From: Pyrinomonadaceae bacterium
GTDB lineage: Bacteria; Acidobacteriota; Blastocatellia; Pyrinomonadales; Pyrinomonadaceae
NCBI GenBank assembly: GCA_036403375.1
Contig: DASWRC010000188.1
Location: 23,248 to 87,247, forward strand
Length of the DNA stretch: 64,000 bases
Direction of reading: 5' to 3'
The notes under the pieces are model-generated. The model had not been told where the DNA came from. It did no database searches and saw only the letters and a list, made by a program, of their open reading frames with translations. Of this stretch, positions 27,709-60,572 are shown in pieces. The number at the start of each line of letters is the position of its first letter. Position 1 is the first letter of the stretch. The position numbers and the translations under genes are program-made.

Positions 27709-28413
27709 TTAGTCTTGCTCGCCCGCGTTTTGAGAGTCGATTTCTATTTCCGAAAACAGCGCCGAGCGATTATGAAGAATTTTGGAAAGCTCGTTTTTTC
27801 TCTGTTCGAGCTGCTTTTTGATTTGTTTGCCCGCCGCCAGGAATTCGGCTTTGACTTTGCCGTTCGCTTCAAGCGTCAGTTTGATTTGCAAGCCCTGCAG
27901 GACGGAATTTTTCAGCGCGATAACGACCTGTTTTTGATTCTGAAAAGTTTCGCCGCGGATGCACGCCACGATTCGTTCCAAATCGGCAACGTGGAGAATC
28001 GAACGCGCCGCCGGTGCGTCCGCGTCCATATCGGCGGCATTTAGAAGATGTAAAACTGCGAGTCCGGGCGATTGATTCTCCTCGCCGTTGTGGCGCGCAT
28101 CGCCGTCGCCTTTTTTGCCGCCGCGTTCTTCGAGTTCTTTTTTCTCGTCAACGGCGCGGCTGGTTTTTTCGTCGCGCTCCGCTTCGGAAGTTTTTGAATC
28201 GTGTTCGGCGGAACCGTTTTTGGGGAGCGAAGAATTGTTTTTCGCGTTTTCCCGGCGCGTTTCTTCCAGGATTTTGGCAAACGCGCCCGGAGTCGGTACT
28301 TTTTCGGTGATTTTGGGCGAATTTGACGAATTAAAGACGCTCTCTTCGGTCTTAAAAACGTTTTTCGCTTCTTTCCGCTCGACCGAATTATTTTTCGACG
28401 CTTCGACTTTCAT
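27709..28413 (-). CDS. FliK/SctP-like protein (candidate T3S4 substrate-switch / length-control domain)
   Basis: 234 aa. The N-terminal two thirds are charged and disordered. The C-terminus QVVIALKNSVLQGLQIKLTLEANGKVKAEFLAAGKQIKKQLEQRKNELSKIL follows the FliK C-terminal pattern (xLxLxPxxLGxhxIxLxxxxGxVxAxFxAxxxxV+xxLExxxxxLxxxL). This is a pattern match by eye only. Confidence 0.45.
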   Translation of the reverse strand: MKVEASKNNSVERKEAKNVFKTEESVFNSSNSPKITEKVPTPGAFAKILEETRRENAKNNSSLPKNGSAEHDSKTSEAERDEKTSRAVDEKKELEERGGKKGDGDARHNGEENQSPGLAVLHLLNAADMDADAPAARSILHVADLERIVACIRGETFQNQKQVVIALKNSVLQGLQIKLTLEANGKVKAEFLAAGKQIKKQLEQRKNELSKILHNRSALFSEIEIDSQNAGEQD

Positions 28414-28428
28414 AGCGCTTGCCGCCTT

Positions 28429-29790
28429 TTATTTGTTGATTTTGTTTGAAGTCTCTTTTAATTTTTTCTGCGCTTCAGTTTTATTAACGATTTTGCCTTC
28501 GGGGTCGAGCGCGATGGCTTTTTCATAGGCTTCCTTCGCCTTTGTATATTCGCGCTGGCTCTGGTAAACGTCCGCCAGCTCGTAATAGGCAATCGCCGAA
28601 TTCGGGTCGGCGTCAATCGCTTTTTGATATGCGTCAATCGCGCTCACGTCGCGTTTCAATTTCTCGTAACCGTTGCCGATGCTGATAAAAACTTCCGCTT
28701 TCGGCATTTCCTTGGCGACCGCTTCGAGTTCTTTGATAGCTTCCTCGATTTGCTTGGTTTCGAGCATCAGAGTGCCGAGCCAAAACCTTGTTTCGAGCGT
28801 ATTGTAGCCGAATTGAATCGCGTTTTTGTAAGCCGCAATCGCTTCTTTTTCGCGACCGAGGATGCGCTGCGTGTCGCCGAGCTTTTTATAGCCCATCGCC
28901 ATTTTCGGGTCAATTTGCAGCGCTTTCAGGTAAAGCTTTTGCGCGTCGGCATATTTCTGGTTGGCAAAATACGTGTTGCCGAGTCCGTAAAACGGCAGCG
29001 CCGAAGTCGGCATAAATTCCTGCGATTTGTTGAAGGCGGTGAAAGCGTTCATGTATTCGCCTTTGGCAAGCTCGATTTGACCGGACGCGAACCAGCGCTG
29101 CGCTTCGATCTGAACCGCCGTGTAGCCTTGCAGATGTCCGCCCTGCGCGGCTTGGAAAACCACCTGCCAATCGTCCGGAGTGACCGTATCGGTAGTTGCC
29201 GGATTAGCGTAATTTTCTAAGATTTTCTTGACCTGCCCGCTTGCTTCGACCATTTTTTGAACGTCGGATTTTTCTTCCGTCTCGACGGGTTTTTCGATTG
29301 TCGGAGCAGATTTCGGAACGAATTCCTCGAACAGTTTAAAGGTCGTCTGGTCGGCACTGACGCTGATTCTTTTGCTGGACAGCAGCACCTGGCGTTTATT
29401 TTTTGCCATTAAAAGATATTCGCCCGCCGCCAGTTTCTTCGACAGCCGGAGTTTGTCGTCCGTCACGCCGATAGTTTTTTCGTTCAGGAAAACTTCGACC
29501 GCCGGTTGATTGGCGACAAACGTCACGTCGAGATAAGTTTTGGGCGTCGCTTTTTTTACGGCTGCCGCGTTTTTATTGGTCGAGGAATTGTTTTTCGCAA
29601 CGGTGGTTTTCGGCTTTTTCTTGGATTTTTTCTCTTGTGCGGTTTTTTTCTGGTTGCCATAGACGGTGTCGCGCAAATCGTCCTGACCGAAGACCGCGAA
29701 AACATTTGCACCAAAAGCCAAAACGAGCGCAATAACGGATGTTTGAATCAGTTTACGGGTAATTTTCGAAAGCGTATTTGTTCTAAACAT
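28429..29790 (-). CDS. Membrane-anchored PEGA-like + TPR repeat protein
   Basis: Track ORF runs to 29832. The ATG at complement 29788-29790 has GGAGGA upstream and gives MFRTNTLSKITRKLIQTSVIALVLAFGANVFA. A PEGA-like beta segment (VTFVANQPAVEVFLNEKTIGVTD) is followed by about 6 TPR units. Confidence 0.55.
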   Translation of the reverse strand: MFRTNTLSKITRKLIQTSVIALVLAFGANVFAVFGQDDLRDTVYGNQKKTAQEKKSKKKPKTTVAKNNSSTNKNAAAVKKATPKTYLDVTFVANQPAVEVFLNEKTIGVTDDKLRLSKKLAAGEYLLMAKNKRQVLLSSKRISVSADQTTFKLFEEFVPKSAPTIEKPVETEEKSDVQKMVEASGQVKKILENYANPATTDTVTPDDWQVVFQAAQGGHLQGYTAVQIEAQRWFASGQIELAKGEYMNAFTAFNKSQEFMPTSALPFYGLGNTYFANQKYADAQKLYLKALQIDPKMAMGYKKLGDTQRILGREKEAIAAYKNAIQFGYNTLETRFWLGTLMLETKQIEEAIKELEAVAKEMPKAEVFISIGNGYEKLKRDVSAIDAYQKAIDADPNSAIAYYELADVYQSQREYTKAKEAYEKAIALDPEGKIVNKTEAQKKLKETSNKINK

Positions 29791-29850
29791 CAGGAAATTT
29801 ATCCTCCTCGTTGTGCTGGTGTTTCTCATCATACATCAAAATCTGCCGGG

Positions 29851-30840
29851 CTACCTGCGCCGCTCGACGACATACCGGAATCCGACCGAACCGACGCGCG
29901 TGTTTTCGGGAATTTCGTAGCGCGCCTGCGCCGAAATCTGCGCCCGGGGCGTTTGCGCCGAACCGCCCTTGACGACCCGCAGAACCTGCCCGTCGGCGAG
30001 CGCCTTTTTTACTTCCTCGTCGGTCACTTCCTCGTTTTTGCCGACGCGGTCCGCGGTCCATTCCCAGACGTTGCCCGCCATATCGAACGCGCCGAACGGC
30101 GAGCGGTTGAGCGGGAAACTTTTGACTGGGGCGACTTTGCCGCCCGATTCTTTCGAGTTCGCAGCTTCTTTTCTCCAATCATTGCCCCACGGATATTTAT
30201 TTCCGCCGCTGCCGCGCGCCGCCAGCTCCCATTCGGCTTCCGAAGGCAGGCGGACGGGCAGACCGATTTTTTTCTCCAGCCACTTGCAAAACTCGACGGC
30301 GTCCGCATAGGAAACGTTCGTCACCGGAAAGTTTTCCGTGCGGGCGGGAAATTCGTTTTCCTTCCAGCCCGGCGGCGCGGCGTGATTGGTCGCCTTAAGA
30401 AATTCGGCGTATTCGGTGTTGGTTACTTCCGTTTCGGCAATCAAGAAATCTTTGACAATCGCGCGCTGAATCGGCAATTTCGTTTCGCCGCCGCCGAGTG
30501 CGATTTCACCGCCCGGAACTTCGAGGACGCCCGCCGGCAGCGGTTTTTCGTTAACGAGCGGAGAAGGCGGATTCGGCTCCGTATTGGTCGTCGGCGCGGC
30601 GTCGGTTTTAAGGGCGATTTCCGGCTTTTCGGGAACGTTTGACGGCAGGCTCGTTTCCGCCGTCGGAGTGATTTTATACCGGTCGCGCGAACCTAAAACC
30701 AACCAGCTGCCGGTTCCTAAAACGACGGCAATCGTAAAACAAACCAAACCGGCGACGGCGAACGGCAAAAGACGCAAATCATCCTCGGTTCGGACCGTCG
30801 GGCGCGCCGTCTGAATTATTTGTTCCTTTTTCTCCGTCAT
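29851..30840 (-). CDS. Formylglycine-generating-enzyme (SUMF1/FGE-sulfatase) domain protein, membrane anchored
   Basis: Track ORF starts at a TTG (30948). The ATG at 30840 gives MTEKKEQ, followed by a TM segment. FGE-fold motifs are present: IAETEVTNTEYAEFL, YPWGNDW, GNVWEWTAD, RVVKGGS, VGFRYV. Confidence 0.75.
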   Translation of the reverse strand: MTEKKEQIIQTARPTVRTEDDLRLLPFAVAGLVCFTIAVVLGTGSWLVLGSRDRYKITPTAETSLPSNVPEKPEIALKTDAAPTTNTEPNPPSPLVNEKPLPAGVLEVPGGEIALGGGETKLPIQRAIVKDFLIAETEVTNTEYAEFLKATNHAAPPGWKENEFPARTENFPVTNVSYADAVEFCKWLEKKIGLPVRLPSEAEWELAARGSGGNKYPWGNDWRKEAANSKESGGKVAPVKSFPLNRSPFGAFDMAGNVWEWTADRVGKNEEVTDEEVKKALADGQVLRVVKGGSAQTPRAQISAQARYEIPENTRVGSVGFRYVVERRR

Positions 30841-59854: not shown

Positions 59855-59869
59855 GGCAGAGGCGCAGCG

Positions 59870-60340
59870 ATGGTCGGTAAAACACAGACAGCTCGGGAAA
59901 AGCTAAGCATTTCGCCGCAGGAATTTGCGGAGATGGGACGAGTCGGGGCGATGTATTACCAGCAGGGCAACTTTGAGAAGGCGCGGACGATTTTTGAAGG
60001 ATTGGTTGAATTAGACCCGGAAAATGCAAATGCACATTCAGCTTTAGGGGGATTGCTGACTTTGCAGCAGGACGACTCGCGAGCCGTCGAGCATCTTTTG
60101 CGGGCGATTGAGCTGAATCCTTCACAAATCGCGCCCTACGTAAACCTGGGCGAGATTTACATCCGCCGGCAAAGAATTGAAGACGCGGTCGCGAATTTGA
60201 AGCAGGCAATCGAGCTTGACCCGGACGAACGAGACGCCGGAGCAAATCGCGCGCGGGCGATGGTTCTGGGGATTTATCAGGTCATTAAAGCGGAAGAAAA
60301 TTTGGACGACATGAATTTGGCAACCGAAGAAATAAATTAA
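59870..60340 (+). CDS. TPR protein, candidate needle-subunit co-chaperone (YscG/PscG-like position)
   Basis: 156 aa with three TPR units. It lies immediately upstream (17 bp) of the SctF-like gene. Confidence 0.5.
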   Translation: MVGKTQTAREKLSISPQEFAEMGRVGAMYYQQGNFEKARTIFEGLVELDPENANAHSALGGLLTLQQDDSRAVEHLLRAIELNPSQIAPYVNLGEIYIRRQRIEDAVANLKQAIELDPDERDAGANRARAMVLGIYQVIKAEENLDDMNLATEEIN

Positions 60341-60356
60341 TATAAGGAGAAAAGTT

Positions 60357-60572
60357 ATGGCAGTACAAGGCACGACACAGGTTCCGGCGGAACAACAGGC
60401 AATTTTTGATGAACAGCGACGACTGAACGCCGAAAATCTGGCAAGCAGCATGCAGATGATGCGCATTCAGCAGGAACAGGCTAAGCAGCAGGAAGCCATT
60501 TCGATGCTCAGCAACACGATAAAGAACGCGCATGACGCGAAGATGAATATTATCAACAACGCTAAGAGTTAA
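60357..60572 (+). CDS. sctF: Type III secretion needle subunit SctF-like protein
   Basis: 71 aa with an AAGGAGA RBS. The C-terminus SNTIKNAHDAKMNIINNAK matches 9 of 19 positions against MxiH/PrgI SNTVKVIKDVDAAIIQNFR. A Rho-independent terminator follows. Confidence 0.65.
   Translation: MAVQGTTQVPAEQQAIFDEQRRLNAENLASSMQMMRIQQEQAKQQEAISMLSNTIKNAHDAKMNIINNAKS

Follow-up and report, generated by a model that had tools for sequence, protein, structure and literature searches.

The 64,000-nucleotide (nt) window analysed here comes from a Pyrinomonadaceae bacterium of the phylum Acidobacteriota (GenBank assembly GCA_036403375.1, contig DASWRC010000188.1, positions 23,248 to 87,247 of the forward strand). 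It carries a gene block for a T3SS (type III secretion system) at 27709-60572, probably reaching 61508 when the gene of a DUF6683 lipoprotein is included. The core genes sctN, sctV, sctU, sctR, sctS, sctT, sctQ and sctJ are all clustered between 37801 and 56477 (Table 1). An earlier note, made from the sequence alone, had named the components of the block, and the open reading frame (ORF) list together with Pfam and NCBIfam scans placed each of them where the note had put it: a full export apparatus (SctV, SctJ, SctL, SctN, SctU, SctQ, SctR, SctS and SctT) with SctO, three small TPR chaperones, an FHA protein ahead of sctV and an SLT transglycosylase. A SctP/FliK-like protein is likewise present, albeit with a weak match below the cutoff. 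A 467-residue (aa) protein brings the TPR proteins of the cluster to four. All ORFs of the cluster are intact, and G+C content is uniform along the window (0.49-0.57). The note had recognised both injectisome and flagellar hallmarks in the block, and had proposed either a lineage close to the passage from flagellum to injectisome or a flagellar export system that was strongly remodelled. Taken as a whole, the cluster is best explained as a secretin-less acidobacterial non-flagellar T3SS (NF-T3SS), a reading to which we assign a probability of about 75%.

The phylogenetic position of the core proteins argues for this reading. In a neighbour-joining (NJ) tree of 149 SctV/FlhA sequences, anchored by LcrD, MxiA, Ralstonia HrcV, Bradyrhizobium SctV and the FlhA proteins of E. 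coli and Granulicella, the window SctV fell inside the non-flagellar clade with 100% bootstrap support, while the clade of Ysc, SPI-1, Hrp2 and Rhizobiales SctV formed without it in 100/100 replicates. The acidobacterial SctV clade together with its sister P0247 also received 100% support. A six-marker concatenate (SctN, U, R, S, T and V; 1,895 ungapped columns, seven taxa, 200 replicates) recovered three injectisomes as monophyletic without the window in 200/200 replicates and three flagellar systems in 182/200. Because both monophylies exclude the window, it attaches to the branch between injectisomes and flagella. Pairwise identities were 41% between SctV and LcrD versus 32% to FlhA, acidobacterial (Granulicella) FlhA included, and 61% between SctN and YscN versus 47-51% to FliI; SctU and SctR are roughly equidistant from flagellar and non-flagellar references, and SctU, SctS and SctT score about alike with the models of both kinds. 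On these sequences the system is placed outside the classical injectisome families, on the non-flagellar side, with a branching order that is not fixed. Since it nests in no well-known injectisome family, 'a lineage near the flagellum-to-injectisome transition' is a fair description.

The inventory of missing parts is consistent with this position. Pfam scans found no secretin domain in any scanned ORF of the window, nor any flagellin, hook, rod, L/P-ring or Mot domain, as the earlier note had stated. A tblastn search (E <= 0.01) covered 1.36 Mb, made up of the window and 84 related loci with ~20 kb around each. It returned zero matches for the secretin queries MxiD and Ralstonia SctC, for SctD (MxiG), the gatekeepers MxiC and YopN, LcrV, YopB and YopD, and for Granulicella FlgB/C/E/F/G/H/I/K/L and FliC/D/E/S. 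A further reading, that the cluster supplies the export gate to a flagellum with structural genes at other sites (a split flagellar regulon) or represents flagellar export machinery in strongly remodelled form, would account for its FliO, its FliG-like protein, its FliA-type sigma factor with sigma-28-like promoters, and the even model scores of SctU, SctS and SctT. It is nevertheless very improbable: SctV and SctN side with their injectisome counterparts, the ring protein is a SctJ lipoprotein and not FliF, the flagellar queries drew a blank in all loci, toxin, chaperone and needle-like genes lie within the cluster, the flagellar FlhA of Granulicella is only 32% identical, and Chloracidobacterium isolates have been described as non-motile (PMC8245765).

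The membrane ring points in the same direction. SctJ, correctly anticipated as a YscJ-type lipoprotein instead of FliF, carries the lipobox LLSAC, a C-terminal transmembrane helix and an acidic cytoplasmic tail of 45 aa. The sole transmembrane helix of the FHA protein is at residues ~322-343 of 346, and the protein thus, with this helix at its extreme C-terminus, is predicted to be without a periplasmic SctD ring domain; the Pfam model of the YscD periplasmic domain found no match in it. The protein is, as judged from its sequence, a SctD-like cytoplasmic part without the periplasmic ring. These features bear on an unlikely alternative, in which the system is an ordinary injectisome that has its secretin gene, and perhaps that of its periplasmic SctD ring, at another place in the genome, or that uses the secretin of a type II or type IV pilus system. 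Needle- and rod-like genes imply an extracellular structure, the search covered ~20 kb around each of 85 loci, chlamydial T3SS genes are scattered (PMC3459982), and some acidobacterial genomes hold the cluster in two or three pieces. However, no secretin lies beside any cluster part in the window or the related loci, the periplasmic domain by which injectisomes contact the secretin is missing from the FHA protein, through loss or from the outset, and the clade stands outside the secretin-bearing crown families. Three accessory proteins have no counterpart in known T3SSs: an inner-membrane protein with an FGE fold, the 467-aa TPR protein and the DUF6683 lipoprotein. One may speculate that they help to cross the periplasm or the outer membrane. 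At 1353-3857 of a Myxococcota-labelled locus (L096), a GspD-type secretin gene and a type II secretion ATPase gene lie ~6 kb from a stand-alone sctV, by coincidence or functional association.

The family is widespread in Acidobacteriota, mainly in Pyrinomonadaceae and other Blastocatellia. When one genome per GTDB species was scanned, 480 of these species-level genomes proved to encode SctR relatives. The best 80 of these 480 (59-94% identity) are labelled Acidobacteriota, bar one 6.5-kb contig binned as Actinomycetota, and comprise Pyrinomonadaceae, other Blastocatellia, Chloracidobacterium metagenome-assembled genomes, Bryobacteraceae and Terriglobia; the closest SctV proteins (<=90% identical) all come from Pyrinomonadaceae, Blastocatellia or other Acidobacteria. 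SctV neighbours were also searched among 1.84 billion proteins, clustered at 50% identity with one representative each. In this set the acidobacterial family collapsed to one full-length representative plus apparently a few fragments, and the next non-acidobacterial SctV was 43-45% identical. Identified neighbours belong to Candidatus Schekmanbacteria, 'Deltaproteobacteria'/Myxococcota and Labilithrix. We found no description of a non-flagellar T3SS in Acidobacteriota in the searchable full-text literature, and nothing relevant on predation by Pyrinomonadaceae.

Gene content, gene order and high protein identity are kept across the related loci, which indicates that the T3SS is native and old in the phylum. 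In other acidobacterial loci the sctP-like gene lies directly upstream of sctQ, and the 467-aa TPR and FGE genes stay together between sctO and sctP/sctQ, giving the alternative order sctO-FGE-TPR-sctP-sctQ-fliO-sctRST. The FGE protein is present in 25/40 full-size loci, Terriglobia variants included. The DUF6683 gene follows the needle-like gene in ~18/40 and probably belongs to the cluster. Simpler variants in Bryobacteraceae and Terriglobia (L092-L094, ~2500-13000) read sigma-sctI-sctJ-(~170-aa gene)-sctL-sctN...fliO-sctR-S-T-U. The window holds no tRNA, and no integrase or transposase domains were seen in it, in agreement with the earlier impression of a native locus. Recent horizontal acquisition was rejected, given the even G+C content, the lack of mobility genes or tRNA and the phylum-wide distribution. 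That the cluster is decaying, or came in recently on a pathogenicity island as an injectisome of a known family, could explain why no secretin, gatekeeper, tip or translocon gene turned up in the loci. The probability of this is next to negligible, with intact ORFs, a cluster kept across hundreds of species at high identity, a composition and surroundings free of island marks, and exclusion from the crown families at 100% bootstrap.

Several of the features first read as flagellar are not diagnostic. The orders listed as flagellar, (F-position)-G-H-I and flhB-x-fliM/N-O-P-Q-R, correspond to J-K-L-N and Q-R-S-T, which are injectisome orders as well. The FliM-like part of SctQ is real, located in the middle of the protein (Pfam FliM E 1.3e-5; NCBIfam FliM 57 bits), but SctQ is generally a FliM/FliN homologue and the part is no flagellar hallmark. 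The FliO homologue scores well above its cutoff and is coupled to sctR as described, its stop codon overlapping the sctR start codon by 1 nt. fliO precedes sctR in 38/40 full-size loci and lies upstream of it in the non-acidobacterial relatives L095 and L097 too. FliO was already reported in 2025 in non-flagellar T3SSs of Myxococcota and some Pseudomonadota (PMC12248157), and for this reason is not diagnostic of a flagellum.

The FliG-like gene occupies the SctK position between sctJ and sctL. Its product, weakly matched as a single sequence, becomes a solid candidate across orthologues, with a homology that is remote. Among 36 orthologues, 34 matched FliG_M (best E 3.4e-7) and 12 matched FliG_C (best E 1.1e-4), alongside the related MgtE_N (11), FliG_N (4) and YscK (1). 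An AlphaFold2 model built from the orthologue alignment was all-helical (pLDDT 84), and its top twelve Foldseek matches in PDB were all FliG, near full length, with weak E values (0.05-0.9) and low global TM-scores, as might be expected of a flexible three-domain protein. A REPE...LILKNL stretch near residue 105 resembles the EHPQ motif at the start of the FliG middle domain. NCBIfam FliG models do not recognise the protein. One protein of a Pyrinomonadaceae metagenome-assembled genome matches it at 100% identity. Homologues (133 matches) are confined to the acidobacterial T3SS family, and the same gene occurs in the sister lineage L097. There, at 10232-11189, it is present as two ORFs (145 and 182 aa) matching the N- and C-terminal halves of the profile; this contig has ~3x coverage by its name, and the split may be a sequencing frameshift. 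In L092-L094, the family hidden Markov model (HMM) does not detect the ~170-aa gene that fills the SctK slot, so that long and short adaptors may coexist in one phylum. SctK has been proposed as the counterpart of FliG (PMC4045390), and a structure-based study tied a chlamydial SctK candidate to both the FliG and the SctK Pfam families (10.1101/2025.03.14.643159). A FliG-length, FliG-scoring protein in the SctK slot of a non-flagellar system is compatible with a FliG-SctK intermediate, on which the proposed homology becomes testable.

The needle and rod that the note had suggested remain plausible, with profile matches that are weak. The fetched loci contain 42 distinct small ORFs of the needle-like family, sharing the C-terminal motif SNxxKxxHDAxMxxIxNxK. 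The 154-aa paralogue is related to the 71-aa protein by BLASTP (E 4e-5), is recovered by the family HMM, and matches the NCBIfam HrpA pilin model (E 0.004). Of 20 members compared with Pfam, the commonest families were T3SS_needle_F (4/20, best E 0.002) and HrpA_pilin (3/20, best E 1.8e-5). The family HMM gave in-register, non-significant matches to BsaL, MxiH and PrgI in PDB. The 192-aa SctI-like protein ends in an invariant LSKVVDQ..GG.KT.LNTNV; T3SS_basalb_I was the commonest Pfam family among its orthologues (5/9, best E 0.012), and its gene takes the canonical sctI position, directly upstream of sctJ, in the Terriglobia variants. We regard the 71-aa family as a likely needle candidate and the 192-aa protein as a likely rod candidate.

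The sigma factor, rightly described as FliA-type, has FliA/WhiG as its closest family and shares 29% identity with Granulicella FliA (E 2e-18). The cluster contains a promoter motif, GGAAACTTT-N11-GCCGATAA, near-identical to the enterobacterial sigma-28 consensus TAAAGTTT-N11-GCCGATAA. Seven sites in the window match GAAACTTT-N13-CGAWAA exactly, compared with ~0.5 (0.53) expected even with one mismatch allowed. All seven are within the cluster, intergenic and correctly oriented, 24-101 nt upstream of the next gene or operon, and the scan of the window placed no site ahead of any apparatus operon. Exact matches occur in 41/97 fetched loci, several directly upstream of rod- or needle-like genes. 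The same motif stands ahead of a 738-aa gene beside a stand-alone sctV in Candidatus Schekmanbacteria (L013, 12216-12242), and hence may predate the acidobacterial family. These findings suggest that flagellar class-3 logic, with exported late substrates under sigma-28, runs in a predicted non-flagellar system. An anti-sigma factor resembling FlgM was not recognised. The 96-aa helical ORF beside the FHA-sctV operon (36260-36550) is FlgM-sized, has no detectable similarity to it, and is no more than a candidate for this role.

The promoters also mark the candidate cargo. The RNase toxin and its immunity gene occupy the same position in every orthologous locus examined, with the CdiI_2 gene always after the toxin. 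Among 60 listed toxin homologues, 56 have a precomputed RNase A domain match and four have no precomputed Pfam match. A polymorphic toxin with exchangeable C-termini was considered and rejected: no listed homologue (n = 60) carries a different toxin domain. As the C-terminal domain is also rich in invariant residues, the toxin appears to be a fixed effector. The immunity gene shows that the RNase toxin is predicted to be active in the bacterial cytoplasm. Together, the toxin and the wall-degrading and lipase-like enzymes resemble antibacterial arsenals. Cargo aimed at bacteria has roughly one chance in three; the immunity gene could just as well protect the producer until the toxin is exported to a eukaryotic target. 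In a complete Pyrinomonadaceae chromosome (OZ252034.1; L003, 1-826), a DUF1521 protein and an extra TPR chaperone are encoded just upstream of the RNase toxin. DUF1521 is the self-cleaving domain of the rhizobial type III effector NopE1, and its presence hints at a variable effector slot.

Several results weigh against the NF-T3SS reading or parts of it. The absence of secretin and flagellar genes covers the window and the related loci only. All trees are distance trees with simple corrections, built without named Myxococcus or Chlamydia sequences, and nodes of the NJ tree deeper than the acidobacterial SctV clade and its sister have no support. The needle and rod assignments depend on weak though consistent profile matches, and the single-sequence AlphaFold2 model of the 71-aa protein, one long helix instead of a hairpin, is uninformative. 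For the FliG-like family, hhalign against a two-sequence FliG alignment gave no significant match, that profile probably being too thin for detection, and the family HMM had zero matches among PDB sequences, reference FliG, MxiK and HrpB4; the proposed homology consequently rests on the Pfam FliG models and Foldseek.

In the model that we propose for the acidobacterial NF-T3SS, homology identifies SctR/S/T/U/V as the export gate, with FliO, translationally coupled to sctR, chaperoning its assembly by analogy with flagella. Homology likewise identifies the SctJ lipoprotein as the inner-membrane ring, and SctQ, SctL, SctN and SctO as the cytoplasmic sorting platform; the FliG-like protein may join platform to ring via the acidic SctJ tail, the membrane-anchored FHA protein or both. 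The SctP/FliK-like ruler would switch substrates with SctU. The SctI-like rod and needle/pilin-family subunits would be exported with the aid of TPR chaperones, while the SLT and M15-type enzymes opened the cell wall. The FliA-type sigma factor presumably reads only the promoters ahead of 'late' substrate genes (toxin, hydrolases, rod and needle). Probable cargo includes the RNase A-type toxin, which the CdiI immunity protein would neutralise in the producer.

A bolder version of the model, doubtful in its entirety, casts the system as a needle-bearing, pre-secretin NF-T3SS, the predicted-but-unobserved stage of Abby & Rocha. It would have retained the FliG-length adaptor, FliO and the sigma-28 circuit, would pass the outer membrane by a new non-secretin route (FGE, TPR and DUF6683 proteins as candidates), and would deliver RNase and hydrolases into neighbouring bacteria. 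The flagellum-to-injectisome step is known mainly from the Myxococcales systems, which lost the needle. The acidobacterial family would give a second, richer view of the early steps, in which a non-flagellar core is combined with needle-like genes and flagellar leftovers. It prompts one to ask by what route a needle system without a secretin crosses the outer membrane, and points to an unstudied candidate weapon, RNase toxin/immunity plus hydrolases, in a very abundant group of soil bacteria.

Table 1 Genes and promoters of the T3SS cluster, in window coordinates
Position	Strand	Feature	Evidence
27709-28413	-	SctP/FliK-like, 234 aa, C-terminal substrate-switch (T3S4-type) domain	Pfam Flg_hook E 1.2e-4, 22 bits, below cutoff
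28429-29832	-	Accessory TPR protein, 467 aa, N-terminal membrane anchor or signal, C-terminal TPR	Pfam TPR; topology from sequence
29851-30948	-	Accessory protein, one transmembrane helix, periplasmic FGE-sulfatase-fold domain	Pfam FGE-sulfatase E 3.6e-46
31007-31495	-	SctO/FliJ stalk	Pfam YscO-like E 9e-21, FliJ E 2.6e-11; NCBIfam FliJ 53.8 bits, above cutoff
31691-32419	+	FliA/WhiG-type (sigma-28-like) sigma factor	Best NCBIfam TIGR02479, 129 bits, below its cutoff
32552-32578	+	Sigma-28-like promoter GAAACTTT-N11-GCCGATAA, RNase toxin gene	
32679-34601	+	Candidate effector, 640 aa, C-terminal RNase A-type toxin domain	Pfam RNAse_A_bac E 2.3e-8
34620-34973	+	CdiI_2-type immunity protein	Pfam CdiI_2 E 4.5e-13
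35164-35565	-	Small TPR protein, 133 aa, probable T3S chaperone	Pfam TPR_19; position conserved
35666-36130	-	Needle-like paralogue, 154 aa, Gly-rich N-terminus, needle-type C-terminus	BLASTP, family HMM
36214-36240	-	Sigma-28-like promoter, 154-aa needle-paralogue gene	
36260-36550	-	Conserved 96-aa ORF	Called in all orthologous loci examined; no family match
36676-37716	+	FHA protein, 346 aa	Pfam FHA E 3e-9, Yop-YscD_cpl E 1.3e-5
37801-40005	+	SctV export gate	FHIPEP 657 bits; NCBIfam SctV 703 bits (above cutoff) vs FlhA 572 bits
40027-40872	+	SctJ-type lipoprotein, 281 aa	Pfam YscJ_FliF; NCBIfam SctJ 87 bits vs FliF 20 bits
40881-41891	+	FliG-like protein, 336 aa, SctK position	FliG_M E 0.007 (single sequence)
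41893-42549	+	SctL/FliH stator	Pfam FliH E 2.4e-22; NCBIfam SctL 82 bits, above cutoff
42581-43885	+	SctN ATPase	NCBIfam SctN 643 bits (above cutoff) vs FliI clade 2 630 bits
43963-46191	-	742-aa protein, candidate effector or translocator	No Pfam match; varies among loci, absent from L003
46229-46255		Sigma-28-like promoter, 742-aa protein gene	
46347-46763	-	138-aa acidic protein, probable hydrolase chaperone	Pairing with hydrolase gene conserved
46784-47761	-	Alpha/beta-hydrolase, GxSxG-type nucleophile elbow AHSQG, candidate lipase-type effector	Weak Pfam Abhydrolase_6; motif from sequence
47785-47811		Sigma-28-like promoter, alpha/beta-hydrolase with its chaperone	
47946-47972		Near-consensus promoter (1 mismatch), 134-aa ORF	
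48096-48500	+	Conserved 134-aa ORF	
48622-48648		Sigma-28-like promoter, 630-aa peptidoglycan enzyme	
48690-50582	+	630-aa peptidoglycan enzyme, 3x PG_binding_1, C-terminal M15/VanY-type motifs, no signal peptide	Pfam; motifs from sequence
50716-51792	+	SctU switch protein	NCBIfam SctU 353 bits vs FlhB 352 bits
51809-52459	+	Conserved 216-aa ORF between sctU and sctQ	No family match (Pfam, NCBIfam)
52472-53902	+	SctQ, 476 aa, FliN-type C-terminus	Pfam FliMN_C E 2.4e-15; NCBIfam SctQ 80 bits
53979-54416	+	FliO homologue	Pfam FliO 45.7 bits, cutoff 22
54416-56477	+	SctR, SctS, SctT export-gate core	Pfam/NCBIfam
56756-57892	-	SLT-domain lytic transglycosylase	Pfam SLT E 1.5e-15
57983-58561	-	SctI-like inner-rod candidate, 192 aa	T3SS_basalb_I among orthologues
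58623-58649		Sigma-28-like promoter, SctI-like gene	
58679-59155	-	TPR chaperone, 158 aa	Pfam
59275-60572	+	152-aa Gly-rich ORF, 156-aa TPR chaperone, needle-like SctF candidate (71 aa)	
within 59275-60572	+	Sigma-28-like promoter, 152-aa/TPR/needle operon	
60600-61508	+	DUF6683 lipoprotein	Pfam DUF6683 E 1.8e-30; lipobox from sequence

Other features of the window lie beside these main components. Intergenic hairpins with tandem-heptamer arms occur at 43885-43953, 46267-46346 and 55531-55614 in the cluster and at 7520-7658 outside it. The repeats reported earlier inside and outside the block are thus real, although not the same: the heptamers (CACGAAT, GTGCTAA/GTGCTGA, GAGTTGA) differ per site, with arm complementarity of 86-100%. 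Their placement at gene ends is terminator-like, and no known repeat family could be assigned to this unusual architecture. Adjacent paralogous ORFs at 5294-6184 and 6424-7371 (296 and 315 aa, no Pfam match) share a 258-nt stretch at 82% identity. A 2,497-aa ORF at 11950-19443 (- strand) has scattered TPR repeats and internal repeats ~1.27 kb apart, with VIT/VWA and beta-propeller proteins encoded downstream; this giant ORF is not beside the T3SS in other genomes. Response-regulator and kinase genes upstream of the cluster are not kept as neighbours in other loci.

The closest known systems are the NF-T3SSs of Myxococcales. Abby & Rocha (2012) reportedly defined a 'Myxo' family of NF-T3SS, and Thiery et al. 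(2022) are said to have described the T3SS* of M. xanthus. Secretin-less, early-branching NF-T3SSs are known from Myxococcales (PMC3459982). Like the acidobacterial family, they combine a non-flagellar apparatus with the lack of a dedicated secretin (here at cluster level) and an early branching relative to injectisomes, have fliO beside sctR (PMC12248157), and belong to soil bacteria. Myxococcus T3SS* acts in the lysis of bacterial prey (PMC10849154), a parallel to the toxin-rich content of the acidobacterial cluster. The cluster might accordingly be an acidobacterial branch of this Myxococcales-type secretin-less system, of the same family and biology. Shared FliO, the secretin-free cluster and a branching below the canonical injectisomes (PMC12248157; PMC3459982) favour this possibility, as does the position of Myxococcota-labelled SctV, also outside the crown clade. 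We consider it a minority prospect, because the Myxococcales systems are described without SctF (PMC3459982, PMC10849154) and reported to lack needle and translocon genes, whereas needle/pilin-like and SctI-like genes, moderately secure as assignments, are conserved here. Moreover, the Myxococcota-labelled SctV proteins P0278 and P0314 stood apart from the acidobacterial clade in the NJ tree, at nodes that are unsupported, and no non-acidobacterial SctV is more than 45% identical. The acidobacterial family belongs to a different phylum and adds a FliG-length adaptor, a FliA-type sigma factor with its promoters, the FGE/TPR/DUF6683 accessories and an RNase toxin/immunity pair; the comparison with M. 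xanthus was made with descriptions of its system, not with its proteins.

By sequence, the most similar characterised system is Ysc (Yersinia pYV, Aeromonas Asc), with identities of 41% for SctV, 61% for SctN and 51% for SctS. The two share the gene orders sctJ-K-L and, in the alternative acidobacterial arrangement, sctN-O-P-Q-R-S-T, as well as a TPR chaperone ahead of the needle gene. Ysc possesses SctC, a pilotin, periplasmic SctD, SctW, the LcrV tip and YopB/D, none of which was recognised in the acidobacterial loci; these in turn encode FliO, and a FliG-like protein in place of the short SctK of Ysc, and have a predicted sigma-28-type regulation where Ysc has an AraC-type regulator. In common with the flagellum are FliO, the FliG-like protein, a FliJ-scoring stalk, a FliK-like switch and a FliA-type sigma factor with late-substrate promoters, whereas FliF, FliE, rod, hook, filament, L/P-ring and stator are absent from the cluster and the core proteins group as non-flagellar. 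With SctK (YscK, MxiK/OrgA, HrpB4 and the chlamydial candidate) the FliG-like protein shares the slot between sctJ and sctL. Its 336 aa correspond to the length of FliG, in contrast to shorter SctK proteins (MxiK 175 aa; HrpB4 209 aa in the fetched loci); among its orthologues, matches to FliG_M, FliG_C and FliG_N greatly outnumber the one to YscK, and comparison of its model with known structures ranks FliG first. An early-branching NF-T3SS without a secretin is not new, nor is FliO in a non-flagellar system. New relative to the searchable literature are the widespread acidobacterial family itself, the coexistence of needle-like genes with a secretin-free cluster, a SctK-slot adaptor of FliG length, the set of sigma-28-type promoters, the FGE/TPR/DUF6683 accessories and the embedded toxin/immunity pair.

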